A stretch of 64,000 nt of DNA from Escherichia coli (GTDB lineage: Bacteria; Pseudomonadota; Gammaproteobacteria; Enterobacterales; Enterobacteriaceae), in assembly GCF_044324875.1 (NCBI RefSeq), contig NZ_CP172185.1, one strand, 5' to 3'. Below are positions 3,149 through 55,281 of this stretch, one piece after another. Position numbers and translations under genes: made by a program. Numbering within the stretch: the first letter of the stretch is position 1; each line of letters opens with the position of its first letter. The notes under the pieces were generated by a model, which was given only the letters and a program-made list of their open reading frames with translations, was not told where the DNA came from and did no database searches.

Positions 3149-4444
<1,296 letters not shown>

Positions 4445-4544
4445 CTACATTTGCCAACTGTATGCTACGCCTGTGTTGCCGCTTCTCTGGCCCACGGTTC
4501 GCTGTCGTTGTAGGCCCGGTAGCATGTGTACCGGGCCAGGGTTG

Positions 4545-6479
4545 TTAAGACGATTTACGTACGCGCAAATACCATTCGCACAGTAAACGCACCTGTTTAC
4601 GGGTGTAGCCTTTTTCCATCATACGGTCGACAAAATCGTCGTGTTTCTTCTGCTCGTCGGTTGACGTTTTGGCGTTAAACGAAATAACCGGCAACAGCTC
4701 CTCGGTATTGGAGAACATTTTCTTCTCAATAACCGTGCGCAGTTTTTCATAGCTGGTCCAGTTAGGATTGCGTCCGCTGTTATTCGCTCTGGCGCGCAGT
4801 ACGAAGTTAACAATCTCGTTGCGGAAATCTTTTGGATTACTGATCCCCGCCGGTTTCTCGATTTTCTCCAGCTCGGCGTTAAGAGACTCGCGGTCAAACA
4901 ACTGCCCGGTATCCGGATCGCGATACTCCTGATCCTGAATCCAGAAATCCGCGTAGGTAACATAACGGTCGAAAATGTTTTGCCCATATTCGGAATAGGA
5001 TTCAAGGTAGGCCGTCTGGATCTCTTTGCCGATAAACTCGGCATATTTCGGGATCAGATAACCTTTCAGGAACTCCAGATAGCGTTCTGCCTGCTCTTGC
5101 GGGAACTGCTCGCGCTCGATCTGCTGTTCCAGGACGTAGAACAGATGGACCGGGTTTGCCGCCACTTCTACATGATCGAAGTTGAACACGCGGGAGAGGA
5201 TCTTAAACGCAAAACGCGTCGACAGACCGTTCATCCCTTCATCGACACCGGCGTAGTCACGATATTCCTGATACGACTTGGCTTTGGGATCTGTGTCTTT
5301 CAGACTTTCGCCATCATAAACCCGCATCTTTGAATAAATGCTGGAGTTTTCTGGCTCTTTAAGGCGCGAAAGAATGGAAAAACGTGACAGCGTTTCCAGC
5401 GTGCCAGGGGCGCAGGGGGCGTGAGTCAATTCACTGTGATTAAGCAATTTCTCGTAGATTTTGATCTCTTCGGAAATGCGCAAGCAATACGGCACCTTCA
5501 CGATGTATACACGATCGAGGAAGGCTTCGTTGTTTTTGTTATTACGGAAAGTGACCCATTCGGATTCGTTCGAGTGGGCGAGAATAATCCCGTTGAACGG
5601 CAGGGCGGAGATACCTTCCGTCCCGTTGTAGTTACCTTCCTGAGTGGCGGTTAGCAAGGGATGCAGCACTTTAATCGGTGCTTTAAACATCTCAACGAAT
5701 TCCATGATCCCCTGATTGGCGCGGCACAGCGCACCGGAATAGCCGTAGGCGTCCGGGTCATTCTGCGCGTAGTGTTCGAGTTTACGAATATCGACTTTCC
5801 CAACCAGCGCGGAGATGTCCTGGTTGTTCTCATCACCGGGTTCCGTTTTGGCGATAGCAATTTGTTGCAGAATTGACGGCCAGACCTTCACTACCCGGAA
5901 CTTAGTGATATCGCCACCAAATTCATGCAGGCGTTTTGCCGCCCACGGCGACATGATGGTGCCGAGATAACGGCGAGGAATGCCATACTCTTTTTCCAGA
6001 ATCTGCGCATCTTCCTGCGGATTGAAAAGACAGAACGGATGATCGTTGACCGGGCTACGCTCACCGTTGGCGCTCAATACATAAATCGGTACGAGCTGCA
6101 TTAATGATTTCAGTCGCTCAGCAAGCGATGATTTACCCCCACCCACAGGCCCCAGCAGATACAGGATTTGTTTCTTCTCTTCCAGCCCCTGAGCCGCGTG
6201 TTTCAGATAAGAGACAATCTGTTCAATCGCGTCTTCCATGCCGTAAAACTCTTCAAATGCCGGATAACGTGCAATGACCCGGTTAGAAAAGAGTCGAGAA
6301 AGTCTGGGTTCCTGGGCTGTATCGACCATGACAGGCTCACCGATAGCCATCAATAGCCGCTCAGCCGCGTTGGCATAAGCACTGCGATCTTGCCGACAAG
6401 TGGTAAGAAACTCCTGCAGTGTGAACTCTTCGTCCTTGGCAGCTTCATATCGCTGGCGATAGTGATCGAATATATTCAT
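4545..6479 (-). CDS. yeaG: PrkA-family serine protein kinase YeaG
   Basis: 644-aa ORF with Walker-A-like GPVGGGKSS motif; recognised YeaG sequence. Confidence 0.92.
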   Translation of the reverse strand: MNIFDHYRQRYEAAKDEEFTLQEFLTTCRQDRSAYANAAERLLMAIGEPVMVDTAQEPRLSRLFSNRVIARYPAFEEFYGMEDAIEQIVSYLKHAAQGLEEKKQILYLLGPVGGGKSSLAERLKSLMQLVPIYVLSANGERSPVNDHPFCLFNPQEDAQILEKEYGIPRRYLGTIMSPWAAKRLHEFGGDITKFRVVKVWPSILQQIAIAKTEPGDENNQDISALVGKVDIRKLEHYAQNDPDAYGYSGALCRANQGIMEFVEMFKAPIKVLHPLLTATQEGNYNGTEGISALPFNGIILAHSNESEWVTFRNNKNNEAFLDRVYIVKVPYCLRISEEIKIYEKLLNHSELTHAPCAPGTLETLSRFSILSRLKEPENSSIYSKMRVYDGESLKDTDPKAKSYQEYRDYAGVDEGMNGLSTRFAFKILSRVFNFDHVEVAANPVHLFYVLEQQIEREQFPQEQAERYLEFLKGYLIPKYAEFIGKEIQTAYLESYSEYGQNIFDRYVTYADFWIQDQEYRDPDTGQLFDRESLNAELEKIEKPAGISNPKDFRNEIVNFVLRARANNSGRNPNWTSYEKLRTVIEKKMFSNTEELLPVISFNAKTSTDEQKKHDDFVDRMMEKGYTRKQVRLLCEWYLRVRKSS

Positions 6480-6914
6480 GGTATGCCGTCCTTTCGTTTT
6501 TTAGCACAGGTTAAGAGCCGTTCATATGAATAGTAGAGGCTCCCGGAAGAGGTAAACTGAACGACGTCTCTTGCTAAAACACAGCAACTCTCATGCCATT
6601 TTATCGACGATGAGAACAACGTGCCCGGTGATACACCTTCAAAATTAAGCGTAGATGGCAAATGGAAAACTTGCCTGCACGGCTTTCTTAATTTCAATGG
6701 CATATCAACAACTCATCCATAAATTTTGCATAATTAATGTAAAGACCAGGGTCGCCAGTAACGCTAAATTCATTTGGCTGTAAGCGCGGTGTCATCCGCG
6801 TCAGGAAAATTAAACAGTTACTTTAAAAAATGAAAACGTAAAAAGGTTGGGTTTCGATGTATTGACGGGTAAACTTTGTCGCCCGCTAAACATTTGTTTA
6901 AGGAATGATTAATT

Positions 6915-7661
6915 GTGACCAAACTCAAACTTCTGGCACTTGGAGTGCTTATCGCAACGTCTGCAGGCGTAGCGCACGCTGAAGGTAAATTTTCCCTGGG
7001 CGCAGGCGTAGGTGTCGTTGAACACCCATATAAAGATTACGATACCGATGTTTACCCAGTACCGGTAATCAACTATGAAGGCGATAACTTCTGGTTCCGT
7101 GGCTTAGGTGGTGGTTACTACCTGTGGAATGACGCAACGGACAAACTTTCAATTACCGCTTACTGGTCGCCGCTTTACTTCAAAGCTAAAGACAGTGGCG
7201 ATCACCAAATGCGTCACCTGGATGACCGTAAGAGCACCATGATGGCTGGTCTGTCTTATGCTCACTTTACCCAGTACGGTTACCTGCGTACCACCCTGGC
7301 TGGCGATACCCTGGATAACAGCAACGGCATTGTCTGGGATATGGCCTGGTTGTATCGTTACACCAACGGCGGCCTGACCGTGACTCCGGGTATTGGTGTG
7401 CAGTGGAACAGCGAAAACCAGAACGAATACTATTATGGCGTATCGCGCAAAGAGTCCGCTCGCAGCGGTCTGCGTGGCTATAACCCGAACGACAGCTGGA
7501 GCCCTTACCTGGAGCTGAGCGCCAGCTACAACTTCCTCGGCGACTGGAGTGTTTACGGTACCGCGCGCTACACCCGTCTGTCTGATGAAGTTACTGACAG
7601 CCCGATGGTGGATAAATCCTGGACTGGCCTGATTTCTACCGGGATCACCTACAAATTCTGA
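6915..7661 (+). CDS. mipA: MltA-interacting outer membrane protein MipA
   Basis: 248-aa ORF with signal peptide (MTKLKLLALGVLIATSAGVAHA), beta-barrel-like composition and C-terminal Phe; GTG start. Confidence 0.92.
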   Translation: MTKLKLLALGVLIATSAGVAHAEGKFSLGAGVGVVEHPYKDYDTDVYPVPVINYEGDNFWFRGLGGGYYLWNDATDKLSITAYWSPLYFKAKDSGDHQMRHLDDRKSTMMAGLSYAHFTQYGYLRTTLAGDTLDNSNGIVWDMAWLYRYTNGGLTVTPGIGVQWNSENQNEYYYGVSRKESARSGLRGYNPNDSWSPYLELSASYNFLGDWSVYGTARYTRLSDEVTDSPMVDKSWTGLISTGITYKF

Positions 7662-7692
7662 TAATGCATCTTTCCAGGGCATTTTGTGCATA

Positions 7693-7718
7693 AAAACAGG
7701 GCGTCACGCCCTGTTTTG
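7693..7718 (+). terminator. Rho-independent terminator downstream of mipA
   Basis: GC stem acagggcg/cgccctgt with 3-nt loop followed by TTTTG, about 30 bp after the mipA stop. Confidence 0.5.
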
Positions 7719-7750
7719 CATTACGGTGGTGCAATACCTGGGAGGAAACA

Positions 7751-8039
7751 ATGCAACAAAAAATGATTCAATTTAGTGGCGATGTCTCACTGCCAGCCAT
7801 AGGGCAGGGAACATGGTATATGGGCGAAGATGCCAGTCAGCGCAAAACAGAAGTAGCTGCACTACGCGCGGGCATTGAACTCGGTTTAACCCTCATTGAT
7901 ACCGCCGAAATGTATGCCGATGGTGGTGCCGAAAAGGTGGTTGGGGAAGCATTAACCGGTCTGCGAGAGAAGGTCTTTCTCGTCTCTAAAGTCTATCCGT
8001 GGAATGCTGGCGGGCAAAAAGCGATAAATGCATGCGAAG
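7751..8039 (+). pseudogene. yeaE: yeaE (aldo-keto reductase) 5' fragment, interrupted by IS insertion
   Basis: N-terminal 96 codons of YeaE (MQQKMIQFSGDVSLPAIGQGTWYMG...AINACE), then the frame runs into IS sequence and stops at 8056. Confidence 0.85.
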
Positions 8040-8241
8040 TGCAAAATGGCATCTGAATCGATCGCAGTTTGGCATTCGAATCGATCATGATTTGGCATCC
8101 ATCTCCGATCACAGTTTGGCATCACAATCGATCACGATTTGGCATGCTTCCGATCATTGATTGGCATCCTGCCAGTCACTCCGGGAATTAACTCTTTTCA
8201 CCACAGTCTCCATTGCCGTGTTTAAACCAGTGGAGACGTCA

Positions 8242-9807
8242 ATGTCCAGAAAGAGAAAATCCAGGAGCACTATGGAAACCTGTTTTAAGATCCTTCAGCT
8301 CAAGTTCGACAAGAAGCTGACTAACCGTTGTATCGGACTGACGTTACACATCAGCGCCTCAACCGTTTTTGAGGTTCTTGCCCGCTTCAAAGCCTCTTCT
8401 CTGTCATGGCCATTACCTGCTGATATATCCCATGACACGCTGGAGAAACTCATTTTTCCGCCCAAAGACACCTTTGCATCAGAGCTTGTAATGCCTGACA
8501 TGTTGTACTTCGATACGGAAATGAGAAAACCAGGTGTGACGCGGCAACTGTTGTGGATGGAATACAAGGCACAGGCGGGTAACAAAGCGATGGGATACTC
8601 GCACTTCTGCCGTTGCTACCGGGAGTGGAAAAAAACGCGACGTCTCTCCATGCGCCAGGAGCATCGTGCCGGCGAAAAGCTTTTTATCGACTTCTGTGGT
8701 CCTACGGTTCCTGTTATTAATCCGGACACCGGTGAGATACGCCGCGTGGCAATCTTCGTGGCCGTAATGGGGGCGTCCAACTATACCTACGTTGAAGCGT
8801 GCGAAGGTCAGGACATGATGTCATGGTTAAATGCCCACAGCCGTTGCCTGACCTTCCTGGGCGGCGTACCGAAGCTGCTCATCCCCGATAACCTCAGAAG
8901 CGCAGTGAAAAAGGCCGATCGATATGAGCCTGTCATCAACGACAGTTATCAGGCACTGGCTGAGCACTATGGCACGGTTATCATCCCGGCCCGACCACGC
9001 AAACCTAAAGATAAACCAAAAGCAGAAAACGGCGTCCTCATCGTTGAACGATGGCTTCTTGCCCGCATCCGTAATGAAACCTTCCACACGCTCAGGGCGC
9101 TGAATGCGCGCCTTAGGGAGTTACTGACAGACATGAATAACCGGCCAATGAAGGGGTACGGCAATCAAACCCGTGCAGAACGCTTCCGCATACTGGATGC
9201 GCCAGCACTCTCTCCGCTGCCTCTGGCACCTTATGAATACACGGAATACAAAGCTGTGAAGGTTGGCCCTGACTACCACGTTGAATATGCCCGTCACTGG
9301 TACTCCGTTCCACACGAACTGGTCGGTCAGCGTCTGTCACTGAAGGCGGGGCAGTCGGTGGTACAGCTCTGGCACAAGGGGCAGTGTGTGGCGCAACATC
9401 CGCGCAGCACACATGAATATAAACACACAACCAATCCGCTTCACATGCCAGAGCGCCACCGGCAGCACGGGACATGGACACCGGAACGCCTGATCGAGCA
9501 GGGAAAACGTACGGGCCCGTCCACAGGCCGGGTGGTTGAATCCATGCTGAAGGCAAAACCCCATCCGGAACTGGCTTATCGTGCAGTTCTGGGGCTGCTG
9601 GCACTTCAGAAAAAATACGGCCCGGAACGGCTGGAAAAGGCCTGTTACGTTGCCCTGCACTATAACGCCCCTGACAGACGCTTTATCGACAATCTGCTGC
9701 GTCACCATCGGGAGAACCTGGAGCTTCCATTATCCCGCCAGGGCGAACAACATCCGGCATATGCTTCAGAGCATGAAAACCTGCGTGGTCCGGGCTACTA
9801 CCACTGA
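8242..9807 (+). CDS. istA: IS21-family transposase IstA
   Basis: About 520-aa ORF with N-terminal HTH and DDE-type catalytic core typical of IstA; RBS GGAG upstream of ATG 8242; followed by istB. Confidence 0.85.
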   Translation: MSRKRKSRSTMETCFKILQLKFDKKLTNRCIGLTLHISASTVFEVLARFKASSLSWPLPADISHDTLEKLIFPPKDTFASELVMPDMLYFDTEMRKPGVTRQLLWMEYKAQAGNKAMGYSHFCRCYREWKKTRRLSMRQEHRAGEKLFIDFCGPTVPVINPDTGEIRRVAIFVAVMGASNYTYVEACEGQDMMSWLNAHSRCLTFLGGVPKLLIPDNLRSAVKKADRYEPVINDSYQALAEHYGTVIIPARPRKPKDKPKAENGVLIVERWLLARIRNETFHTLRALNARLRELLTDMNNRPMKGYGNQTRAERFRILDAPALSPLPLAPYEYTEYKAVKVGPDYHVEYARHWYSVPHELVGQRLSLKAGQSVVQLWHKGQCVAQHPRSTHEYKHTTNPLHMPERHRQHGTWTPERLIEQGKRTGPSTGRVVESMLKAKPHPELAYRAVLGLLALQKKYGPERLEKACYVALHYNAPDRRFIDNLLRHHRENLELPLSRQGEQHPAYASEHENLRGPGYYH

Positions 9808-9824
9808 CAGAAGGAACAACAGTA

Positions 9825-10579
9825 TGAGTGATAACCTGTTAAACAAACTGACCCAACTGAAACTCCCGGCGATGGCCGGGAGCCTGATACGGCAGCGGGA
9901 AACGCCTCAGACCTACGACGAACTGTCGTTCGAGGAAAGGCTGACGCTGCTGGTTGATGACGAGCTTCTGAGCAGGGAAAACAGCCGTGTGGCACGGTTG
10001 AGAAAAAATGCCGGCCTGAAATACCAGGCAACACCGGAAGGGCTGCGCTATCCGGCCTCAAGAGGTCTGCGGGCTGAACAGATGAGAGAACTGCTGAACG
10101 GCCACTACATAACCCACAGGAAAAACCTGCTGATAACCGGTCCGACAGGATGTGGCAAGAGCTGGATAGCCAATGCGCTGGGCGAACAGGCATGTCGACA
10201 GAAACACAGCGTCCGGTACTGTAGAACCGGGCGATTACTGGAACAACTGGCTCAGGGACGTGTTGATGGCAGCTGGCTGAAATATCTGAAACAGTTGCAA
10301 AAAATACAGGTTCTAATCCTGGACGATCTGGGGCTGGAACAGTTAAGTAACGCCCAGTGTAATGACCTTCTGGAGCTCATAGAGGATCGTTACGGACAAA
10401 GCAGCACGATAGTGGTAAGCCAGTTCCCGGTAGATAAATGGCATGGTCTGATGGAGAACCCAACAACAGCAGATGCCATCCTGGACAGACTGGTACATAA
10501 CTCACACCGAGTGGTCCTTCAGGGAGAGTCACTGAGGAAAAATCCCCCGGTAGTGGAAAGCAGCGAAAAAACGCGTTAA
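9825..10579 (+). CDS. istB: IS21-family ATP-binding helper IstB
   Basis: 251 aa from MSDNLLNKLTQLKLPAMAG...; Walker A GPTGCGKSW and Walker B ILDDLG; starts 15 bp after the istA stop. Confidence 0.88.
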
Positions 10580-10678
10580 AAAGCGGTAGAAAAAGTTAAG
10601 TTCCCGGTTGATCGAATGGATGCGAATCGCTGATCGGACTTCGATGCCAATCCGTGATCGAATAGAGCGGAATACGCA

Positions 10679-11249
10679 CGAAGCCAGTTTACGCCGTCTC
10701 AATACTGATTATCTCGATCTCTACTTATTACACTGGTCTGGCAGTTTCGCTCTCGAAGAGACTGTCGCAGCGATGGAAAAATTGATCGCCCAGGGCAAAA
10801 TCCGCCGCTGGGGCGTTTCTAACCTTGATTATGCCGATATGCAGGAACTCTGGCAGCTGCCGGGGGGGAATCAGTGTGCCACTAATCAGGTGCTTTACCA
10901 TCTCGGTTCACGAGGGATTGAGTACGATCTACTTCCCTGGTGCCAGAAACAGCAGATGCCGGTGATGGCTTACAGTCCGTTAGCTCAGGCCGGGCGGTTG
11001 CGCAATGGGCTGCTAAAAAACGCAGTAGTCAACGAAATTGCACATGCTCACAATATCAGCGCGGCACAAGTATTGTTAGCGTGGGTAATCAGCCATCAGG
11101 GTGTGATGGCGATTCCAAAAGCGGCCACGATTGCCCATGTCCAACAAAATGCGGCTGTGCTTGAGGTTGAATTTTCGTCAGCGGAATTAGCTATGCTGGA
11201 TAAGGCATATCCGGCACCAAAAGGAAAAACTGCGCTGGATATGGTGTGA
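10679..11249 (+). pseudogene. yeaE: yeaE 3' fragment (aldo-keto reductase C-terminal part)
   Basis: Frame resumes exactly at the target duplication with ASLRRLNTDYLDLYLLHW... through the YeaE C-terminus. Confidence 0.85.
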
Positions 11250-11299
11250 TATTGATACGTGCCGGATGCATCGCACCCGGCACACAACATTAACGCAAA

Positions 11300-12184
11300 T
11301 TAACGTTTCGCAACGCGAATGGATTGCGCCAGATGTGCAGGTTTTTCTTTGGTCACTTTTTGCGTTTCTGAAGCGTAAGCCGTTTCTACACAAACAAAGG
11401 TTTTGTAGCCATCGTCCGGCATATCGCCCATGCTAACTGAAAGCGCCGGTCCTGGGTTCCAGCCAACGACGTTCAGATGATGCTGGTGGCCTACGGCGAT
11501 AATACGATTCAACGCTTCGTCATTAATCACGCTGCAATCTTGCGGATTCAGATACACGCGATCGGTACGGTCAGGGAAGGTCTGAATACCGTCGGTCAGT
11601 ACATCTTCTTTCGCGTCATTCACTTTATCAATGAAGCGATCGCCCAGTCCACTGACGCTTACCTTAGTGATATCACCCACGTTAAAGTAGGTATGCAGGG
11701 CAGAGGTGGTTTCAAATTCGCCGTGTGCTTCAAGATCGATTTCACAGGCTTTACCCACGCGGAAATGCGCTAATAGCGTAAAGTCGTGCGGCCAGAATTT
11801 TTTCGTCTCTTCGCTTTGTGTCAATTCAAAAGTCAGCGCTACGCCATCAGCATCTTCACGATGTGATTTCAGCGTCCACGGCAGGTTGCGGGCAAAACCG
11901 TGCGCAGGCAGACCTTGTTGTGCAGCCGGACCAAACCACGGCCAGCAAACCGGTACGCCACCGCGAATAGCGACGCCATTTTTGAACGGTGTGTTATTGC
12001 TCAACCACAGAACTTCTTCTTCACCTGCAGGTTTCCATGAGAGAAGGTGTGCGCCCTGTAATGCAAAAGAGGCTTTTACCTGGGGATGATCGACCACAAT
12101 GAGGTCCAGTTCATCCAGTTTACGACGGGAGAGGACAGGGGAGATTTGTTCGATGACCGGAAGGGCAAAAATTTTCTTAATCAT
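11300..12184 (-). CDS. yeaD: Glucose-6-phosphate 1-epimerase YeaD
   Basis: Recognised YeaD sequence (MIKKIFALPVIEQISPVLSRRKLDELDLIVVDHPQ...); the track ORF extends 7 codons upstream to 12205. Confidence 0.9.
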   Translation of the reverse strand: MIKKIFALPVIEQISPVLSRRKLDELDLIVVDHPQVKASFALQGAHLLSWKPAGEEEVLWLSNNTPFKNGVAIRGGVPVCWPWFGPAAQQGLPAHGFARNLPWTLKSHREDADGVALTFELTQSEETKKFWPHDFTLLAHFRVGKACEIDLEAHGEFETTSALHTYFNVGDITKVSVSGLGDRFIDKVNDAKEDVLTDGIQTFPDRTDRVYLNPQDCSVINDEALNRIIAVGHQHHLNVVGWNPGPALSVSMGDMPDDGYKTFVCVETAYASETQKVTKEKPAHLAQSIRVAKR

Positions 12185-40181: not shown

Positions 40182-40411
40182 CTTCTCTCCTTAGGAATAA
40201 AACTAGATGTATAATCTATTGTTTTTTCATTTGTTGTTTTGTTTGTGTTTTTTAGGGGCCACCAATAAGGCCCCTTGCGCAGTTCGAATTCTTCTGGTGC
40301 TATTTTTCCTCTTTTTTCTGTCTTCCTCCATTATTCTGTTTGACTCGATGTTCTGTATTACGAAATCGAATTAGAGGGCAGATACTTAGAAATTACCAGT
40401 TCAGCTTTCCA

Positions 40412-41197
40412 TTAGTTCCGGATGTTTAAACGTGATATGCGCGGAGCCCTTCTTAAAGTATCTGATACTGAACATCTCATCTTCATAGCACTCTTTACCC
40501 TGAACAGACTGGATGTGCCATCCTGATGAATGGTTATGTTTTTCCCGTTGCCGGGGATGGGGGTGCCGCTGAACAGATGTAGCATTCTTTCCAGGTCGGC
40601 GAGTCGGTCAGTCTGTTGTCCGGTGATAAGATGAAATCCCCACCGGTCCCATCTCACCAGATTGTTGATAATGATTTTACTTCCAAATTTACAGGGAGAG
40701 TTGGTTTTATAATTCCAGCTCAGTTCCCTGAAGACGTTAATCACTCCCCGCTTAAACACCTCATCCTTGTTCTGGTGCACTTGTTCAAATGTGCTCAGAA
40801 TGTTCGCTTCACTGATTTCCGGAAAATTATCATATTCCAGTGACCTGTACCATGTATCACGTGCCTGTGCATCCATTAAGGAAAGCATCCCGGAACGCTG
40901 CATCAGGTTACGCCAGATTTCGCGGTCAAGATTCCGGGTAATGGCTTTCATTGCGGTTTCCTGTTTCTCCTTCAGCCAGCAGCCACAGCGAAAATCCTGT
41001 TTCATGGCCCAGTCCGGGGCGGTTTTACCTCCAATACTTTCCGTCAGAATTGAGATTTTAGCCAGTTGCCGGATAAGTGTGTCGATTGGCAACAGTGTAC
41101 TCTTTCGTACAGCCAGAATGTGGCAGACTGAGGTGGAACAGATAACGTCCGTATGCCCGCTGACCACCTCCGGGCGGGAGAGTGTGGTATCTGACAT
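40412..41197 (-). CDS. Island protein, DUF4942-like (gene commonly found after cbtA/yeeW in CP4-type islands)
   Basis: 261-aa ORF at the distal end of the toxin-antitoxin cassette; family assignment is from memory of typical cassette order, not a search. Confidence 0.5.
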   Translation of the reverse strand: MSDTTLSRPEVVSGHTDVICSTSVCHILAVRKSTLLPIDTLIRQLAKISILTESIGGKTAPDWAMKQDFRCGCWLKEKQETAMKAITRNLDREIWRNLMQRSGMLSLMDAQARDTWYRSLEYDNFPEISEANILSTFEQVHQNKDEVFKRGVINVFRELSWNYKTNSPCKFGSKIIINNLVRWDRWGFHLITGQQTDRLADLERMLHLFSGTPIPGNGKNITIHQDGTSSLFRVKSAMKMRCSVSDTLRRAPRISRLNIRN

Positions 41198-41281
41198 AAT
41201 CGTTTTTCCTTTTTGCAGATAAATGAAAACGCCAGCTCTGTTCAGGCTGGCGTCAGGAGAATGAAGTCTGGTGAGTGAGAT

Positions 41282-41707
41282 TCACCGGTTCTGGTGCAGA
41301 AGTTGCAGTTGGTGCAGGGTACGGATATCCTCCCTGGCCTGTTCGATACAGGGCAACAATGCTGCCGAATCCGTTTTATCCTCATCGTTGTCGAAAATAA
41401 TTCCGGACCCGCAGTCGATATTGTCCTGCAGCCACGCAATGAGGATATCCAGCGCTGTTTCAGTGGTTAATGGCATCACGCTCTGTATCACTGTATTGTC
41501 TTCCGGCAACTGATGAGAGCTGGCAGAAGTCGCCGGTGTTTCGGTAGCGTCACGTTCATCCACCACGCGGAGTGAATAACCGTATTCAGCGACCTTGTTA
41601 ATCAGTTCAGTGAGCTCAACACCATCAATGTCAACGACAATTCGCCCTATATTCAGTGCCTGTACGTTAACGCTGTCTGCTTCCAATGTCAGGGCCAGTT
41701 TCATCAT
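41282..41707 (-). CDS. YeeW-like protein (DUF5983-type)
   Basis: 141-aa acidic ORF whose start overlaps the cbtA-like stop (ATGA), as in yeeV-yeeW. Confidence 0.55.
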
Positions 41708-42078
41708 TTCGCCTCCGGATACTTACCCAGGGTAATGTTATTTACCGTTCTGTAATTGTCGCGGGTCATCAGGCCGGTCGCCCTGCGAGCCCGGAGGATA
41801 TCGATGCTGTTTATTAACTGAGAGCGGGTACAGGCGCTGAATCCCGGCTGGTCGGTACGCACCAGCGCGTATTTTTCCACGAGAAAGTTCACCGCATCAC
41901 ACAGTGAAATGCCTGCCTCAATATGCAGCTCAATCACGCGTTCATCCGCGAACGGTGTGTCATTCAGCGTAAGGCTGTAATGCTGGTCCAGTAACCGGGT
42001 GAGCAGTGTCTGCCAGATGGTGACGGGAGACGGGCAACACGATGCCTCCCGTACATGCGTGTCGGGTAATGTTTTCAT
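41704..42078 (-). CDS. cbtA: CbtA/YeeV-family toxin (type IV toxin-antitoxin system, cytoskeleton-binding toxin)
   Basis: 124-aa [37 protein letters not shown]... matching the YeeV/YkfI/YpjF family. Confidence 0.85.
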
Positions 42079-42167
42079 AATGAAGATTTTCCTGATATGC
42101 AGAGATAAAAAATGGGACAGTGGCGTGGTGAAAACACCAGGCCGGAGCAGAAGATTATTCTGATGAT

Positions 42168-42536
42168 TTACTTTTTCGTTTCGGGCGTCGGATAAACAGC
42201 CAGATAAACGTAACCACAGGAGCCGAGGGTGTCGGCTTCACAGGTCAGCCCCTTCGCATACAGTGTCACGGTATGCTGATGGCGGGGATTCAGTTCACCG
42301 CTGGTGAGCATGAGCTCCAGTTGTTTCATCGGCAGCGGAAAGGCCTGGTCCGGATGGTACGCATCCGCATCTCTGAACCGGCCTCTGATACCGGCACGGT
42401 CGGCAAGGTAATGCAACCGGTTACCCTCCTGCACCAGACGTGCCCCGAAACAGGGCGTCACGGTGCAGGGCAGTCCCCACCAGAGGCGGTCGTGATTGTC
42501 GTCGTGATGCGTTGTCCCGGGGAGTGTGTCTGACAC
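42168..42536 (-). CDS. cbeA: CbeA/YeeU-family antitoxin
   Basis: 122 aa from GTG 42534-42536 ([48 protein letters not shown]...); RBS GAGG about 10 nt upstream; the track ORF is extended upstream in frame. Confidence 0.85.
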
Positions 42537-42585
42537 GATAAAATCCTCACAGAAAATCGTTGAATGATAGTTTAACTTTGACAGG

Positions 42586-43230
42586 TCAGCCGGTGCGCAG
42601 ACCGGCTTCGGTGAAGGTGTATTCGTTGATGAGAAGGGCCTCATCCACAGGGGCATCTGAGGTCAGCCTGTTGTGCTCGTTTTCCAGTTGACGGTACAGC
42701 CAGAAGGCCAGGTCGCGCAGGGCTTCGCTGACAGCGGCTTCCGCATCTGTTGTCATAGTCTGACCAGTCGGACTGTTCCGGGTAACAGTGATATCCATGC
42801 TGTACGGATGGCAGTAGCGTCCCCGGCGGTGGATTTCAGCCTGCAGTTGCCAGAAGTTACGCTTCTGCACCGCCTGCAGGGCATCCGCGATACGATGGAG
42901 TTCATGCTCCTGTGGGGCATACTTCCGGATTATCCGGGCTGTCGCCGGCTGCCAGTGCCAGCGTCCTTCAAAACAGGCTCCGTCCCCCTGGCTGCAGCAT
43001 CCGCTGAACCAGATGCACGGCTCTTCCATAAACCTGCCGTTGCTGAGCCGGAAAACGCGCTGGCGGAGGTCAATTCCGAAAATGTCACAGACCGCCCTGA
43101 AGTCCTCATACACGTTTTCATACCAGTTGCTGTCAGCATGATGCTGACGGTACCCGTCGCGGGCTTTTCCCCGTACCGGGCAGGAAAGTTCATCCAGCGT
43201 ATACACTGTGATGGTGATAATGCTGCTCAT
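42586..43230 (-). CDS. Cysteine-rich hypothetical protein (214 aa), unrecognised family, inserted between the DUF987 and antitoxin genes
   Basis: ATG 43228-43230 with RBS AAGGGG 7 nt upstream, 18 bp after the DUF987 stop; 10 Cys including a CIWFSGCCSQGDGAC cluster; no family recognised by me. Confidence 0.5.
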   Translation of the reverse strand: MSSIITITVYTLDELSCPVRGKARDGYRQHHADSNWYENVYEDFRAVCDIFGIDLRQRVFRLSNGRFMEEPCIWFSGCCSQGDGACFEGRWHWQPATARIIRKYAPQEHELHRIADALQAVQKRNFWQLQAEIHRRGRYCHPYSMDITVTRNSPTGQTMTTDAEAAVSEALRDLAFWLYRQLENEHNRLTSDAPVDEALLINEYTFTEAGLRTG

Positions 43231-43248
43231 CAGAATCCCCTTTCTGAT

Positions 43249-43470
43249 TCAGTTCAGGGTGACGCTCATCAGCCGGACATACGGGCCAAAACTGTCCTTA
43301 CGGCGTTCAGCAAACACGGCCAGCACACCGGGAATATCCTGTACTTCACGACCGGTATACGTCTCAGCACTGCCGTGCCAGCGGTACTTACCGGTGCAGA
43401 ACGGAAATAGACGGGATGCAGGATGCTGTTGGTGAATACGCATGGCTTCACCACGGGTGATAATTTTCAT
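43249..43470 (-). CDS. YeeT/YkfH/YpjJ-family protein (DUF987)
   Basis: 73-aa ORF MKIITRGEAMRIHQQHPASRLFPFCTGKYRWHGSAETYTGREVQDIPGVLAVFAERRKDSFGPYVRLMSVTLN, near-identical to remembered YeeT. Confidence 0.85.
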   Translation of the reverse strand: MKIITRGEAMRIHQQHPASRLFPFCTGKYRWHGSAETYTGREVQDIPGVLAVFAERRKDSFGPYVRLMSVTLN

Positions 43471-43532
43471 AATGGGATACCTCTGAAGACAGAAGATAAA
43501 AGTGAAAACAGGTGTGATGTGGTTGTGACGGG

Positions 43533-44009
43533 TTAAAGCAGACCATGTTCGGCAAAGGAGAAAACCTGGCTGCCACCGACTATCAGATGGTCCGGCACCC
43601 GGATATCCACCAGGCCCAGTGCCTGTACCAGACGTTCCGTGATAAGGCGGTCTGCCTTGCTGGGTGTGACTTCACCGGACGGGTGATTGTGCGCCAGCAC
43701 CACGGCAGCGGCATTGTGGTACAGGGCGCGTTTAATCACTTCCCGGGGATGGACTTCCGTGCGGTTGATGGTGCCGGTGAAGAGGGTTTCACCGGCAATC
43801 AGCTGATTCTGGTTGTTCAGATACAGCACCCGGAATTCTTCACGCTCCAGTCCCGCCATGTTCAGAATCAGCCATTCCCGTGCCGCATGCGTGGAGGTGA
43901 AGGCCACGCCGGGTTCATGAAGATGGCGGTCCAGGGCTTTCAGGGCCCGCTGAATGAGGCTGCGCTCTCTGGTTGTCATTTCTCCGGGCAGAAAGGAAAT
44001 CTGTTGCAT
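43533..44009 (-). CDS. RadC-like JAB/MPN-domain protein (YeeS/YkfG/YfjY family)
   Basis: 158-aa ORF with JAMM motif HNHPSGEVTPSKAD. Confidence 0.88.
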   Translation of the reverse strand: MQQISFLPGEMTTRERSLIQRALKALDRHLHEPGVAFTSTHAAREWLILNMAGLEREEFRVLYLNNQNQLIAGETLFTGTINRTEVHPREVIKRALYHNAAAVVLAHNHPSGEVTPSKADRLITERLVQALGLVDIRVPDHLIVGGSQVFSFAEHGLL

Positions 44010-44024
44010 TGTTCCGGCCCCCTT

Positions 44025-44504
44025 TCAGTCAATGATGCGCATAATGGCGCTGCATTCCGGATGCTGCAGGGCGTAATCCCGCAGACGGTAATAATGAACC
44101 GTCATGGCATAACACTCCGTACGGCAGGCGTGATGACTGTACGTCATCAGACAGGCAGCAATGCCGGCGGCTTCCGGGCTCATTTCAGCGCGGTTACCGT
44201 TCATGGCATTGAACAGTACCCATGTTTCGTCATCATCATCATCCGGTTCGGGGGCCATAAATGCCCCGCCGTTGTTCAGGGTGTACAGATTCCAGATACC
44301 ACCGCAGTAGTCTTCGCACAGACGGTCCATCCAGCCGAAGACACTGGGCTCCAGGGTCACCCACTGTGGAATGAGGCCAAAATGCTGCGGCCAGAAGCTG
44401 ATGCGCTGTTCATCAGGGACGAGGCTGGCAACCAACTGAGGCGGATTATTCTCTGGTGTTGTAGCTGAATAAATTGTGGGGGTATTCTGAGAAACGGTTT
44501 TCAT
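44025..44504 (-). CDS. Antirestriction protein (KlcA/ArdB-like, YfjX/YafX family)
   Basis: 159-aa ORF with acidic stretch EPDDDDDE and the conserved C-terminal region of island antirestriction proteins. Confidence 0.85.
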   Translation of the reverse strand: MKTVSQNTPTIYSATTPENNPPQLVASLVPDEQRISFWPQHFGLIPQWVTLEPSVFGWMDRLCEDYCGGIWNLYTLNNGGAFMAPEPDDDDDETWVLFNAMNGNRAEMSPEAAGIAACLMTYSHHACRTECYAMTVHYYRLRDYALQHPECSAIMRIID

Positions 44505-44585
44505 GAGATAACGCCTTAAATAACAAATAAATGTGTGTTTTTCAGGAACGAAAGCTGAATGATTCCCTCACTCAGGGAAACGGCA

Positions 44586-45404
44586 TCAGCGCATGCTCTC
44601 CAGCAGCGTTTCTGCCATCACCCACAATGCGCGGTTGAGTTTTATATCGGTATCAATGCTGTGAATGGCCCGGGTATGGATACGTTTTCCTTTTGCACTG
44701 CGACCGGAAATCCCGCCTTTCAGCATATTCTCCTGGATGGTCTGATAAGCACTCCACAGGTCCTTACCGTAATCCTCCCGGCGTCGTGGTGTCAGAATGT
44801 CGGCGGTGGTGACGGGCTGATGTTCGTCACCATAACGGTAAGTCAGTGCCGCCTGTGCCAGCGCCTGGCGTGCCGGTGGCGGCAGGACCAGCGACTGCAT
44901 GGCATCACGCTTCTCCTCTATCCGGTCAAACACGCCCACCACCTCGTAAGCCCCTTCAATGACTCTGTCCACCACATTTCCCCGGTGCGGAACACGCACT
45001 TCCCCCCGAGACTGACCGCAGACGCATCCGTTCTGGCAGACGAACCTGAAGTAACCCGGCAGCATCTGGTAGCTGGAGGTACCGTCATGAGAGTTGAGCA
45101 GAATAATTTCAGGGACATGTTGTCCGTTTATCTCCCCGTCACGGCGCAGACGCAGCATGTGTTTGGTATACCCCCGGCGACCCGGGTCACGTACGCGGGT
45201 CTGGCAGGCGAAGAATGGCTGAAAGCCTTCCCGCTGCAGGCTTTCCAGCACGGTGATGGTGGGGATGTATGTATAGTTCCGGCTCCGGGAGGTGTGTTTA
45301 TCTTCCCCGAAAATCCCGGGCACATGGTGCATCAGCTCTTCACGGGTCAGCGGACGGTCACGGCGTATCTGGTTCGCATAACCAAAACGACTGGCTAATC
45401 GCAT
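44586..45404 (-). CDS. DUF932-family protein (YfjQ-like)
   Basis: 272-aa ORF, ATG with RBS GGAG; conserved first gene of the antirestriction-radC-TA cassette. Confidence 0.8.
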   Translation of the reverse strand: MRLASRFGYANQIRRDRPLTREELMHHVPGIFGEDKHTSRSRNYTYIPTITVLESLQREGFQPFFACQTRVRDPGRRGYTKHMLRLRRDGEINGQHVPEIILLNSHDGTSSYQMLPGYFRFVCQNGCVCGQSRGEVRVPHRGNVVDRVIEGAYEVVGVFDRIEEKRDAMQSLVLPPPARQALAQAALTYRYGDEHQPVTTADILTPRRREDYGKDLWSAYQTIQENMLKGGISGRSAKGKRIHTRAIHSIDTDIKLNRALWVMAETLLESMR

Positions 45405-45447
45405 ACTTTGCTCCTTATCAGTGGTTAAGACTGAATGACGTAATCAA

Positions 45448-45481
45448 TGAAAAAGCCGCGTCTCACGGAGAAGACGCGGCC
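45448..45481 (-). terminator. Rho-independent terminator after the secreted-protein/small-ORF pair
   Basis: Hairpin gccgcgtct-cacggaga-agacgcggc followed on the minus strand by T5. Confidence 0.5.
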
Positions 45482-45504
45482 TGATGGATGAAATGAATGA
45501 GGGT

Positions 45505-45657
45505 TTACCGAAGCCCTTCAGCATTGTGGTGACGCAACCGGAAATGCGTTCCCTGATCATCTTCAATAAGCACATTGCGGTAAGCTGTTGTGACAGCCAT
45601 CGCCTGTTCGCGTGAGAAAGGGCCTTCGGGCAATAAAACAGGGTGACAGTCCGACAT
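45505..45657 (-). CDS. Small ORF (50 aa), tightly coupled downstream of the 225-aa secreted protein
   Basis: ATG 6 bp after the upstream stop; [41 protein letters not shown]...; below the ORF-track length cut-off; resembles small island proteins but family not verified. Confidence 0.3.
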
Positions 45658-45662
45658 ACCGG

Positions 45663-46340
45663 CTATTTTCCGATAAATTCAACGCTGGCGCCGGTGGCAT
45701 TACCGTCAGCACCAACCGTGACGGTCACTTTGTCGTACGCACGGTCTTCAGGATTGAACACTTCAAACTCAACCTTATTGCCTTTTACTTCGTAAGAGCC
45801 AAAATCAGCGGTTTCTGTTATTTCCTCGTCATATTCCCGGGCGTATGCCTGCCGGGCAGCCTGCAGGACGGAATCTTTATTAATAGTGGTCGTCTGTTTC
45901 GGGGAAAAACCGGCAAGTGATGTGACAAATTTCGGACAGACCTTCAGCATATCACCGCGGGTGAATTCCATTCGTACACCAAATGCCTGTAAAACGGACA
46001 CATCACGCTCTGCTATGGAGTGAACGGCTTTTTTGACCATTTCCGGCGCCTGTCCGACTTCCACCTCAACAGCCCTGAATCCTGTCTGCTGATTACACAT
46101 TTGTGATGTGGGGATCAGGTTACCGTTAATACTGATACGGTTGCCCAGGAGCGTCTGTACGCCATTCGGGCATCCCTGCATCAGGCCGGTAATACCAATC
46201 GTGCCATTTTTCAGCATTACCAGCGCCTGACCATCTTCCGTCATGGTCTGACACCAGCCGTTTTTGACAGCCCAGTTGCCGGCGGAGGCGGAGAATGATG
46301 CCACAGTGAACAGCAGGGGAAAAAGAATTCTGGTATTCAT
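45663..46340 (-). CDS. Secreted/periplasmic hypothetical protein (225 aa) with signal peptide
   Basis: N-terminus [23 protein letters not shown] (signal peptide with AxA-type cleavage site); RBS GAGG; occupies the cargo slot between the GTPase and DUF932 genes. Confidence 0.6.
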
Positions 46341-46458
46341 GACTGACCTCTGAAATTAAAGAGCGTGTTATTGATAATGACAGACGGTATACGGCAGTGG
46401 TTACCGTAATCCGTTGTCGTGTAAAGGTATACGGTTGCCACGGGGGACTCCGGAGCGT

Positions 46459-47343
46459 TCAGAACAGGTGATCCCACAGAGTGACCAGCAGGTGGATAAT
46501 GCGGTCCCGGGTTTTGCGCAGAAGCTGTAACATCCAGGCCGGAAAACTGAAACGGGCAACGGCGTCGTCAAAACTTTTCCCGATGGTTTCACCAAAAGTC
46601 TGTTGTGCGTGTTTCTGGACCCGTTCAGAGCGGTTTTCCCCCCGGATATGTGAATAAACCGCGCTGGTTGCCTGTGGCGGCAGTGCGTGGATCATCAGTG
46701 ACACCAGTGCCGGAATATTCCAGCCGACAGGCGCGGCAACGGGGAGTACCGGAAATGATGAAGGGAACAGGGTTGCCACCCGGGCTGTCACCGTCGCCAG
46801 CGAGAGTTCCTGGTGACGGGACGGGCATTTTTCTGTGTCGTTCCATTCTTCAGCAGGAAATACGCGATCGGCATGGCTGAGAACAAACAGAAAACGCGAG
46901 GGATCTGCACCTTCATTCAGTAAAAACTGATGCATGGCGATGTCGGCAGCATACGCACGTTCATCAGCCCGCAGGATCCAGATAATCAGATCCAGTTCGG
47001 GCAGTAACTGACTGTAAAGTGCCCGGTATTCCTGATCATGCTGTGGTGTTTCGCCAGTGCCGGGCAGATCGACCAGCGTCATTCTTCGTTCACCGGGCTG
47101 AAAGGTAAGACGATGAGCCTGACGGGTGCAGCCGTTCAGCGGATGCGTGGCGCAGACACGGGACTGAAAAATGGCATTGCACAGGCTGCTTTTTCCGGCA
47201 CCGGATTTACCCATAATGCCAATCACGGGCTCGTAATGAATAACACTGTGGAGATGTTCAAGGATTTTCTGGCGAATTTCTTCAGGAAGAAACGTCAGAT
47301 ATGATTTCACTTGTGCGGAGAGGGAAGAATGGCTGAATGACAT
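46459..47343 (-). CDS. YeeP/YfjP/YkfA-family GTPase
   Basis: 294-aa ORF with P-loop GIMGKSGAGKSS and G3 motif DLPGTG; typical lead gene of CP4-type island cassettes. Confidence 0.85.
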   Translation of the reverse strand: MSFSHSSLSAQVKSYLTFLPEEIRQKILEHLHSVIHYEPVIGIMGKSGAGKSSLCNAIFQSRVCATHPLNGCTRQAHRLTFQPGERRMTLVDLPGTGETPQHDQEYRALYSQLLPELDLIIWILRADERAYAADIAMHQFLLNEGADPSRFLFVLSHADRVFPAEEWNDTEKCPSRHQELSLATVTARVATLFPSSFPVLPVAAPVGWNIPALVSLMIHALPPQATSAVYSHIRGENRSERVQKHAQQTFGETIGKSFDDAVARFSFPAWMLQLLRKTRDRIIHLLVTLWDHLF

Positions 47344-47448
47344 ACCGGTATCCTGTTGATTTCACTGAACCGGATCACACTAATCCGGTTTATCATTCAG
47401 GTAATATGGGCGTGAAAAAATCTGGAGTGACAAAGTTCGGGAGGAGTG

Positions 47449-48399
47449 ATGGCATCACTGTCGATTAATACGCTACGCCGAATGAGCATTTGTAAAAGTC
47501 AGGCCTGGAAAGATACCCAGCGAATACTGAAGCGTAGTGGACTTGTGTACAGAGGGGAACGGTCAGAATCGTTTGATCCTGAGAAACATTTTAATCGTTA
47601 TACGGTGCGTTATCTGTACCTGCTTAACATAATTGCGCTTAAGATAAGGTCGGTTAGTAAATTTTCCTGTTGGATCGAGGTGGGACAATGCCATCGTATG
47701 ACTGGTAAACATTTATCTCTTAATGCCCCGCCTTTTATGCTGATTCCGCGTAGTATCCGGAGAAAAGTGGATGGATTCAGACAGTCAAAAGGTGAAGCAA
47801 CCCCAAAATCGGCTCAACCGTTCACGGGCAGTTTGTATGAGGTTTTGAGAAAGGAGAGCGATTCAGCTAAGCTGGACGCATGGATTGCTGAACTGCCTCT
47901 GAACTTGCAGGAGGAGGGAAAGGAAATCTCAGTCATGGGATTTAGTCCACGGGCTGTGGCCCGACCTGTTCTTCGGTCAGCATCCCCGACGTTTGAACTG
48001 TTTTATCAGGAGTATCAATCCCTAAGATTAAAATCTGTTTTTAAATTTGAACCAAGATTTGAACAACTTTTAACAAGACTGAGCTTTAGAAAACAATCAA
48101 TTCTCAGAAAACAACAATACAGGGTTAAATCGCAATTACTGGAGAGACTGGGGAATGTGTTGTTTTTCACGTCGCTTTATAACCAGGGATGTTTAGAGGA
48201 GTTTATAAATGCACTTGTGGAAAAGGAGGACATTTATCTGAAAATGTCCCCTGGGGAGGAAAAGGTGAAAGCACACCAGAAAATGGTTAACTACATTGAA
48301 GCGTTCTGCAACAAAATGACGGAAAAATACCTGATGCCCGCAGCAAGCAGACACTACAAAAAGAAGAAAATCGCCAGGAGCGAAAGTGGTGAAAGTTAA
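47449..48399 (+). CDS. Hypothetical protein (316 aa), low GC, unrecognised family
   Basis: Strong RBS GGGAGGAG 4 nt before ATG 47449; divergent from the GTPase gene; basic and coiled-coil-rich; no motif I can assign. Confidence 0.55.
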   Translation: MASLSINTLRRMSICKSQAWKDTQRILKRSGLVYRGERSESFDPEKHFNRYTVRYLYLLNIIALKIRSVSKFSCWIEVGQCHRMTGKHLSLNAPPFMLIPRSIRRKVDGFRQSKGEATPKSAQPFTGSLYEVLRKESDSAKLDAWIAELPLNLQEEGKEISVMGFSPRAVARPVLRSASPTFELFYQEYQSLRLKSVFKFEPRFEQLLTRLSFRKQSILRKQQYRVKSQLLERLGNVLFFTSLYNQGCLEEFINALVEKEDIYLKMSPGEEKVKAHQKMVNYIEAFCNKMTEKYLMPAASRHYKKKKIARSESGES

Positions 48400-49184
48400 T
48401 CCAGTCTACCGTACAGAATCAGTTGTTCCAGAATAGCCTGCTGTGTTGTTTTCCGCTCTCTGGTCAGTCTGTCCAGAGCGCTTTTTGCGGATGGCGATAT
48501 CTTTACGTTGATTTGTACCCGTTTATCTTTTTTTCCATCGATAAACTGTTTTCTGAATGCATTGTGCATCTTGTCGAAAAATCTTTCTTTTGCAGCGAAT
48601 CCTAGGTGAAATTCTTTTGGCGTCAGTAAACAGGGTGTGTCTGTGGGGAATAACATTTTTAGTAAAACTACAATGGCAATATATCTTTCGTTATCATTTA
48701 CAGGATTAAACCAGGAAAGATATGTGGGTGAGATACGTGCATCAATATATTCCCATGCCCATTTCAGTTGTTCGGTATTCTTTTTAAGCCATTTGGCTTC
48801 GTTTCTCTTTTCGAGTCCCAGCCAGTTTTGATGCATTATTGAGATAATCCGATCTGCTTCCCCATAAAGGATTAACGCATTAATCCATTTCCCTATAACA
48901 TTCAGTCGTGTTTCATGACTTGAAGGAATAATTGTCATGGGGTTATCCTTCATAACGATCACCCCCTTCAAGGCAGAGTTGAACTCAGATTCATTATTAA
49001 GTTTAAGTTTTTCGGGAACTGTATGAGACATAATTAACCAGAACCAGAATGCTGCAATTTCATTTTTTCTGATCCATTCAGGTATGTGATTATCTGCCAG
49101 ATTATTATCATTCAATAAATGCTCAGTTGTTTTATTTTTCCAGTCATATCTATTCACGTTATAACCGCCTTTATATTGTTTCAT
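48396..49184 (-). CDS. Hypothetical protein (about 262 aa), low GC, C-terminal ribbon-helix-helix-like segment
   Basis: ATG 49184 with RBS GAGG 8 nt upstream (the track ORF starts 29 codons earlier); stop overlaps the convergent gene stop by 4 nt; C-terminus KISPSAKSALDRLTRERKTTQQAILEQLI resembles RHH DNA-binding folds. Confidence 0.5.
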   Translation of the reverse strand: MKQYKGGYNVNRYDWKNKTTEHLLNDNNLADNHIPEWIRKNEIAAFWFWLIMSHTVPEKLKLNNESEFNSALKGVIVMKDNPMTIIPSSHETRLNVIGKWINALILYGEADRIISIMHQNWLGLEKRNEAKWLKKNTEQLKWAWEYIDARISPTYLSWFNPVNDNERYIAIVVLLKMLFPTDTPCLLTPKEFHLGFAAKERFFDKMHNAFRKQFIDGKKDKRVQINVKISPSAKSALDRLTRERKTTQQAILEQLILYGRLD

Positions 49185-51613: not shown

Positions 51614-51939
51614 GCCCTGTAAAACGACATCCGGTGCCTGAGCTTATGCTACAGGACGTTGGCTGACGCCCTTAGCTCGTTTTCTGAAAAAGTCGTCCTG
51701 AAGTCATGCAACGGTATTTTTCTCTGCTTTCGCTCCTGGAAACACTCCGTCGGTAAAACCTTACTGTCCTGCTTAATGATGTGAACCGAAGTCAACGGAG
51801 ATCATTCATTCTGAACCTGCATCCGGTGTTCTGTCCCTTGTCGGTTACCTGATCTTCCCGTTCTGCCGCGGTTTTTCACTTATTCCATCAACCCCATACG
51901 CAAGCCATAACACGTCAGCGCATCCACGGGCAGGACGCG

Positions 51940-52542: not shown

Positions 52543-52610
52543 AAGCTCAGCTCAGCAGATTCACCCGCATTTGCCCAACATTCATAAATCTCACAGAGGA
52601 CATTCTGACC

Positions 52611-53596: not shown

Positions 53597-53613
53597 ACAG
53601 CGCTGTTGTGCAG

Positions 53614-55273: not shown

Positions 55274-55281
55274 GTATTCAT

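Follow-up and report, generated by a model that had tools for sequence, protein, structure and literature searches.

The yeaE gene of this Escherichia coli chromosome is interrupted at codon 97 by an insertion sequence (IS) of the IS21 family, which almost certainly arrived there by simple transposition of an ISSso4-type element. The IS is 2,639 bp long, occupies positions 8040–10678 of the window (the whole 64,000-nucleotide stretch of DNA that was analysed) and has the termini TG (8040–8041) and CA (10677–10678). Reading across the boundary, marked here by a slash, the left junction is ...GCATGCGAAG / TGCAAAATGG and the right junction is ...GGAATACGCA / CGAAGCCAGT. The sequence-only reading had placed exact junctions with a duplicated CGAAG at 8035–10683, and both junctions, read directly, agree with this placement: 5 bp is the only duplication length that fits them, as lengths of 3, 4 and 6–11 bp produce mismatches. 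A 5-bp match at fixed positions has a chance probability of about 1/1,024, a consideration that is irrelevant here because the empty yeaE site is available for comparison. The boundaries of the IS are backed independently by copies elsewhere, which align over exactly bases 1–2639. The coordinates of all features are collected in Table 1.

Table 1. Features of the interrupted yeaE locus, in window coordinates.
Feature	Position	Strand	Basis
yeaE 5′ part, codons 1–96 plus 1 nt	7751..8039	+	rebuilt-ORF and empty-site comparison
Target duplication CGAAG, first copy	8035..8039	.	single CGAAG at the empty site
ISSso4-type IS21-family insertion sequence, 2,639 bp, 5′-TG / CA-3′	8040..10678	+	
Left terminal repeat array, six repeats; presumed IstA binding sites	8040..8174	+	
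istA, DDE transposase, 521 aa from ATG 8242	8242..9807	+	
istB, AAA+ helper ATPase, 251 aa	9824..10579	+	
Right-end repeats, given as reverse complement from the terminus inward	10606..10678	-	
Target duplication CGAAG, second copy	10679..10683	.	junction comparison
yeaE 3′ part, rest of codon 97 to the stop codon; carries catalytic His113	10684..11249	+	

Joining the two parts of yeaE (7751–8039 and 10684–11249) restores an unbroken 855-nt open reading frame (ORF) of 284 amino acids that matches aldo-keto reductase families. A 600-bp sequence rebuilt across the junction with a single CGAAG, which extends roughly 290 bp to either side of the insertion, displays 100% identity over its full length to E. 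coli CFIAFB20140388 and NY1601, and the matching locus in both is annotated as ‘methylglyoxal reductase YeaE’. At least 80% of this rebuilt sequence is covered in 5,423 of the 5,426 complete E. coli genomes. The two halves of yeaE are thus otherwise intact and in frame, as had been claimed, and the comparison with intact loci that had been suggested for this purpose finds a single CGAAG in the empty site.

In its interrupted form, yeaE runs into the IS and terminates at a stop codon at 8054–8056, which results in a 101-aa product that ends in ...ACEVQNGI and consists of 96 residues of YeaE followed by five foreign residues. The catalytic tetrad is split by the insertion: D50, Y55 and K80 precede it and H113 follows it. 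Judging from the sequence, this yeaE is a predicted null allele whose enzyme activity would be lost. No polar effect on downstream genes is expected because yeaE ends its run of co-directional genes and is convergent with yeaD. E. coli possesses several other aldo-keto reductases that reduce methylglyoxal (e.g. DkgA, DkgB and YghZ), and the window itself contains ydjG, whose annotated product is an NADH-dependent methylglyoxal reductase. A strong phenotype of yeaE loss is therefore unlikely. The splitting of a non-essential gene such as yeaE by a catalogued mobile element is an ordinary event of a kind that is already known, and it has little importance beyond annotation, where the locus is correctly described as a yeaE pseudogene split by an ISSso4-type element of the IS21 family.

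The IS carries the two genes of an IS21-type element. An IstA of this type was sought as a protein with N-terminal helix-turn-helix domains, an rve catalytic core and a Mu-like β-barrel. The IstA of the window scores 284.6 bits against NF033546 (‘IS21 family transposase’, cut-off 160), 72.1 bits against PF22483 (cut-off 27) and 32.1 bits against PF00665 (rve), the last being slightly below the cut-off of 32.6. Its DDE residues D150, D216 and E262 (numbered according to the 521-aa product) are conserved in comparison with the IstA of IS5376 (PDB 8B4H, 8Q4D), and beyond its β-barrel domain (residues 326–397) the protein extends for about 124 further amino acids to its C-terminus. A second in-frame ATG at 8272, which is the start annotated by NCBI, gives a product of 511 amino acids. 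The istB gene starts 16 nt past the istA stop codon on the same strand, and its product reaches 257.8 bits with the NF038214 model (cut-off 200) and 205.7 bits with PF01695. A promoter scan of positions 7650–11350 returned no candidate istA promoter and none that reads outward from the IS.

Both ends of the IS contain arrays of repeats, the motif of which occurs 7 times compared to 0.27 occurrences expected by chance. At the left end, L1 comprises the terminal 20 nt (TGCAAAATGGCATCTGAATC) and is followed by five further repeats of 22–24 nt with the form GATCRNNRWTTGGCAT that start at 8060, 8083, 8107, 8130 and 8152, so that the spacings are 20, 23, 24, 23 and 22 nt; five of the six left-end sites begin with GATC. 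The right end has three repeats: R1, the terminal 19 nt (TGCGTATTCCGCTCTATTC), R2 (GATCACGGATTGGCAT) and R3 (GATCAGCGATTCGCAT), after which a partial fourth repeat is found. Repeats spaced by 23 bp have been described for the IS21 family (PMC10122671), and repeats with a spacing of about 23 bp in both ends, terminal CA dinucleotides and 5-bp duplications are features of this family (PMC10122671, PMC11208146). Membership of the IS21 family, also part of the sequence-only reading, is borne out by (i) IstA and IstB scores above the curated NCBI cut-offs, (ii) the TG and CA ends, (iii) the repeats with a spacing of about 23 bp that build up the imperfect inverted repeats of the termini, and (iv) the target duplication, which is 5 bp long in many members.

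The same reading had taken an IstA of about 520 amino acids to mean that the element is not IS21 itself. This is correct: the element, whose IstA has 521 amino acids counted from the ATG at 8242, is ISSso4-type and belongs to a subgroup with a long IstA. IS21 of plasmid R68.45 has an IstA of 390 amino acids, a family-defining istA-istB operon and multiple terminal repeats, and it uses two in-frame istA starts to produce a transposase and a ‘cointegrase’. Compared to the window element, its IstA is about 130 amino acids shorter and the entire element measures about 2.1 kb. A long IstA is common in the IS21 family and has already been named in many elements, and is neither new nor unusual: a tblastn search with the 521-aa IstA found 1,749 plasmid records in which at least 80% of the query was covered, from Proteobacteria and beyond.

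IS5376 of Geobacillus stearothermophilus (PDB 8B4H, 8Q4D, 8Q3W, 5BQ5) is the structural model for the IS21 family. It shares with the window element a DDE transposase and an AAA+ helper, terminal CA dinucleotides, end repeats spaced by 23 bp and a 5-bp duplication. The relationship is distant (E-values of 7e-14 for IstA and 4e-24 for IstB), the solved IstA chain has 406 amino acids and no extended C-terminal region, and each end of IS5376 contains two repeats, where the window element has six at its left end and three at its right end. By analogy with this solved system, we propose the following sequence of events for the insertion into yeaE. IstA would recognise the repeated sites in both ends of the IS, pair the ends and expose their terminal 3′-CA-OH groups. 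IstB, an AAA+ ATPase, would assemble on the target DNA, bend it and activate IstA, which would then join both ends to target positions separated by a 5-bp stagger. Gap repair by the host would convert this stagger into the CGAAG duplication.

The name of the element calls for a closer comparison. Variants of one element are expected under the ISfinder criterion to display at least 95% nucleotide identity over the full length and about 98% protein identity. A copy annotated by NCBI as ISSso4 family and located on a virulence-type plasmid of Shigella sonnei (NZ_CP046285.1, 172260–174897) is 2,638 bp long, compared to 2,639 bp for the window element, and the two have the same first and last 25 nt, the same istA-istB layout with products of 511 and 251 amino acids, and 96.3% nucleotide identity. 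The 98 nucleotide differences between them are evenly spread and are accompanied by 12 substitutions in IstA and 7 in IstB (97.7% and 97.2% protein identity, respectively). The S. sonnei copy is flanked by a 7-bp duplication, whereas that of the yeaE copy is 5 bp. The IstB of the window is exactly WP_001282653.1, which NCBI labels ‘ISSso4 family’, and its IstA variant is labelled ‘IS21 family transposase’ without the ISSso4 family name. The copy on E. coli plasmid pCT (NC_014477.1, 41986–44624; 6-bp duplication AAGTAT) is 2,639 bp long, has 7 mismatches to the window element (99.7% identity) and an identical IstB, and is called ISSso4 in a paper that used ISfinder (PMC6361801). We thus apply the name ISSso4 in a qualified sense, following the rule-based NCBI naming of IstB, the 96.3% match with the copy from S. 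sonnei, and the pCT annotation in one paper; ISfinder may or may not class the window element and the S. sonnei copy as one element.

That the element is no variant of ISSso4 but some other IS21-family member, for example ISEc12 or a new one, is unlikely. Such a reading would draw on the label that the NCBI pipeline withholds from IstA, on protein identities to the S. sonnei copy that fall below the rule of about 98%, and on the fact that ISEc12 is likewise an IS21 element of E. coli with a long IstA that makes a 5-bp duplication; it has against it the full-length nucleotide identity, end sequences and size shared with the S. sonnei copy, and the published name of the near-identical pCT copy. 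ISEc12, which is inserted in the tssM gene of E. coli ST131 (PMC10711316), resembles the window element in its long IstA (about 513 amino acids) accompanied by IstB, in the GATC of its left-end repeats, in its host species and in its 5-bp duplication in EC958. It differs in its length of about 2.5 kb, its end-repeat sequence and its IstA, which is only 47–48% identical (47.9% for a CDS with the annotation ISEc12 family); identity with ISEc12 was rejected on this ground and on that of the published primers. The published ISEc12 forward primer is contained exactly in that annotated CDS but has 4 mismatches in 26 bases in the window IS, within which the reverse primer finds no site with up to six mismatches allowed. 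In 50 kb of EC958 near aspV, searched for the tssM that bears ISEc12, no T6SS genes are annotated.

Complete 2,639-bp copies that differ at 0–3 positions occur elsewhere on chromosomes and plasmids of E. coli, many of them from chickens, each near-identical copy with a target duplication of its own. Roughly 225 genomes carry full-length copies, and a single genome contains up to 23 copies. The differing chromosomal and plasmid contexts of these copies, together with the empty yeaE site in 5,423 genomes, attest to movement of the IS. In E. coli the IS is active at present, for the most part in poultry isolates and on plasmids, and its relevance to genome plasticity is already recognised. The exact left-end 28-mer has 0 matches in a set of one genome per species and 12 matches in viral contigs, all of which are truncated IS copies or copies cut by contig ends and thus yield no additional duplications.

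The junction of yeaE with the IS is found in none of the 5,426 complete E. coli genomes. An independent short-read contig (SRR31072984, 3 samples) matches positions 3751–8066 of the window with 0 mismatches over 4,316 nt, ends 27 nt into the IS and encodes the same 101-aa YeaE product. As the junction is present in no complete genome but in one independent contig, we infer that the insertion probably occurred recently and is limited to a single lineage, and its presence in few sequencing runs makes it a possible clone-specific marker. The relatively recent origin suggested by the sequence-only reading is thus probably correct. The converse, an old insertion that became fixed in a lineage where yeaE was already dispensable or decaying, is improbable: the occurrence of the same junction in 3 sequencing samples does mean that at least one clone transmits it, but the two copies of the duplication match perfectly, unrelated strains carry copies of the IS with 100% identity to this one, the 600 bp across the rebuilt junction match intact alleles without any further lesions, and the complete genomes lack the junction altogether. 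It is scarcely credible that the junction is an assembly artefact in which a copy of the IS was misplaced into yeaE. Although an element present in so many places per genome is a typical site of misassembly, an erroneous join would not leave the same 5 bp of target sequence on both sides together with an exactly restorable ORF, and the left junction is carried without mismatches by the independent short-read contig.

Two side observations concern the element as a whole and not the yeaE copy in particular. Eleven natural copies of the ISSso4-type IS have target duplications of 4, 5, 6 or 7 bp, and a length of 5 bp is thus not constant for this IS. In contrast, IS5376 makes a fixed 5-bp duplication, and the same spacing was used to build the strand-transfer substrate for cryo-EM. 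A tentative and rather doubtful idea is that the IstA and IstB of ISSso4-type elements join ends to the target with a variable stagger and that the GATC-rich left array of six sites could render the binding of IstA responsive to Dam methylation; neither idea appears in the literature searched. Dam-sensitive binding would, if true, tie transposition to the passage of the replication fork, as Dam methylation does for IS10 and IS50. With this idea in mind, the left-end regions of ten long-IstA relatives, with approximate element boundaries, were compared. GATC recurs in the end repeats of ISEc12 and of ISFK1 from Bradyrhizobium, a host in which Dam is not expected, and is missing from the repeats of three elements on enterobacterial plasmids, a host pattern that does not support the Dam idea.

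The interruption of yeaE at 8035-10683 is an ordinary event, in which a previously known element has inserted into the gene. In the window sequence, ...GCATGCGAAG/TGCAAAATGG marks the left junction and ...GGAATACGCA/CGAAGCCAGT the right, with the pentamer CGAAG flanking the insertion sequence (IS) on both sides; when duplications of 3 to 11 bp were tried at both junctions, none but 5 bp fitted. As is typical of DDE transposons, the sequence enclosed by the two pentamers has TG...CA ends. When 7751-8039 is joined to 10684-11249, an 855-nt open reading frame (284 aa) is restored. With only one CGAAG kept, the rebuilt junction (600 bp) has a 100% full-length match in the chromosomes of E. coli CFIAFB20140388 and NY1601, where the locus is annotated as yeaE, methylglyoxal reductase, and 5,423 of the 5,426 complete genomes searched from this species contain at least 80% of it. 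Because the rebuilt junction matches annotated intact yeaE, the empty site is documented directly and the insertion is confirmed. The sequence-only reading, which described exact junctions with a duplicated CGAAG and yeaE halves otherwise intact and in frame, and which called for comparison with intact yeaE elsewhere, was thus accurate.

Features of the insertion and other mobile DNA in the window
Feature	Position	Strand	Description
CGAAG, left copy	8035-8039		target duplication
IS	8040-10678		2,639 bp, TG...CA ends
Left end	8040-8174		terminal unit and repeats
istA	8242-9807	+	521 aa from first ATG; 511 aa from ATG 8272
istB	9824-10579	+	251 aa
Right end	10606-10678		terminal unit and repeats
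CGAAG, right copy	10679-10683		target duplication
IS1397 (IS3 family)	~31114-32471	-	between topB and gdhA
CP4-like genomic island	~40400-58700		adjoins ynjB
YadA-like adhesin	56596-58197		533 aa, in the island
IS3-family orfB	59112-60002	+	296 aa, right edge of window
IS66-family TnpC-like transposase	62019-63557	-	512 aa, right edge of window

Members of the IS21 family carry end repeats 23 bp apart and a terminal CA and generate 5-bp duplications (PMC10122671, PMC11208146). Every defining feature of the family that was tested is present in the window IS, and the earlier assignment to this family holds: IstA, the transposase, scores 284.6 bits against the NCBI IS21-family transposase model (cut-off 160), IstB, the helper ATPase, scores 257.8 bits against its own model (cut-off 200), and the composite ends, TG/CA termini and 5-bp duplication agree. 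A domain search found an rve-type core and a Mu-transposase-type beta-barrel in IstA, which can be aligned to the solved IstA of the Geobacillus stearothermophilus element IS5376 with the catalytic residues D150, D216 and E262 conserved; IstB likewise matches IS5376 IstB structures. The left end consists of a terminal 20-nt unit followed by five 22-24-nt repeats (GATCRNNRWTTGGCAT), which makes six units spaced by about 23 bp; at the right end, a terminal unit is followed by two to three similar repeats. The motif occurs seven times in the window (0.27 expected by chance). Typical family members are described with two IstA-type repeats per end, whereas the window IS has six on the left and three on the right.

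GATC opens five left and three right repeats, which places 8 of the 13 GATC (Dam) sites of the IS in its ends. A comparison of GATC-containing repeats with the presence of a Dam methylase in the host gave no clean link over ten relatives, and the literature searched held no report of Dam control of IstA binding; such control via the end-repeat GATC is speculative.

That IstA is not the 390-aa protein of IS21 was correctly noted before, but the long form is common: tblastn matched at least 80% of the 521-aa IstA, at 34-51% identity, in 1,749 plasmid records from hosts including Klebsiella, Pseudomonas, Burkholderia, rhizobia and Deinococcus, and with ISEc12, ISAs29, ISSpu5, ISBmu3 and ISFK1 among the named elements. 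The NCBI pipeline annotates the istA start at ATG 8272 in identical copies. A distance of 10 codons separates the two in-frame ATGs (8242 and 8272), which are preceded by Shine-Dalgarno-like GGAG and AGGAG, respectively, and are both kept in a Shigella sonnei copy. As possible alternative starts of istA, they resemble the dual start from which IS21 makes a transposase/cointegrase pair.

The element is probably of ISSso4 type, a name that rests on NCBI labels, identity to the S. sonnei copy and published naming. NCBI calls IstB of near-identical E. coli copies 'IS21-like element ISSso4 family helper ATPase' and puts the ISSso4 label on both proteins of the S. sonnei plasmid copy. The latter is 96.3% identical to the window IS in nucleotide sequence (2,638 versus 2,639 bp), with identical terminal 25-mers and with IstA and IstB 97.7% and 97.2% identical. 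The copy on plasmid pCT, which differs by 7 bases, was called ISSso4 in a paper that used ISfinder (PMC6361801). E. coli has one other well-known IS21 element with a long IstA, ISEc12. Its IstA is only 48% identical, which marks it as a different element; its published forward primer, an exact match inside an annotated ISEc12 gene, has 4 mismatches out of 26 in the window IS, and no site for the reverse primer was found in this IS even when up to six mismatches were tolerated.

By analogy with the IS5376 structures, IstA would bind the end repeats, pair the ends and expose the 3'-OH of the terminal CA, while IstB would oligomerise on target DNA, bend it and activate IstA. IstA would then attach the ends to the target at two points separated by 5 bp; gap repair would leave the CGAAG duplication.

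An assembly artefact could in principle have created the yeaE::IS junction, which was found in none of the complete E. coli genomes. It is no serious rival, because an independent short-read contig, SRR31072984 (three samples), spans the left junction, matching window 3751-8066 with no mismatches. This contig stops 27 nt into the IS; short-read contigs usually break at a repeat. For a genuine insertion, the perfect CGAAG duplication, the identity of the IS to copies elsewhere and the identity of the 600 bp across the rebuilt junction to intact yeaE alleles suggest a recent event confined to one lineage. Elsewhere in E. coli, many sites on chromosomes and plasmids, often of isolates from chickens, hold copies that are also exactly 2,639 bp long and differ at 0-3 positions; in 225 of 5,426 E. 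coli genomes a copy covers at least 80% of the element.

The IS interrupts yeaE at codon 97. The truncated product has 101 aa, the last five foreign (VQNGI), and the aldo-keto reductase tetrad is split, with D50, Y55 and K80 upstream of the IS and H113 downstream; as judged from sequence, loss of YeaE function is therefore very likely. As yeaE converges on yeaD, a polar effect is not expected.

The duplication length of this IS is not fixed. Among eleven natural copies it was 4 bp in one, 5 bp in three (window copy included), 6 bp in four and 7 bp in three, and one further copy had no duplication (both CGAAG copies of the window and the comparison loci L003-L007, L010 and L038-L042). IS5376 gave 5 bp in 10 of 10 insertions in vitro (PMC10122671). 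Most of the ~1,600 E. coli partial-match records are unannotated left-end repeat-array fragments of 100-200 bp, ~95% identical, which appear to be what is left of old copies that were truncated; examples are L012 3001-3102 (E. coli EDL933, adjoining terW) and L013 3001-3202. The EDL933 fragment, the one locus examined in this respect, adjoins an IS66-family element. A decayed relative in E. coli STEC309 (L009, 1066-3360) is ~91% identical over the IS core, with istA and istB frameshifted and the ends diverged or missing.

Other mobile DNA lies further along the window. IS1397 occupies the same place in several E. coli genomes. The CP4-like island, which besides the adhesin carries a cbtA/yeeU toxin-antitoxin pair and antirestriction, DUF932 and GTPase genes, is matched by only some E. 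coli genomes, and the best matches end at ~58.7 kb.
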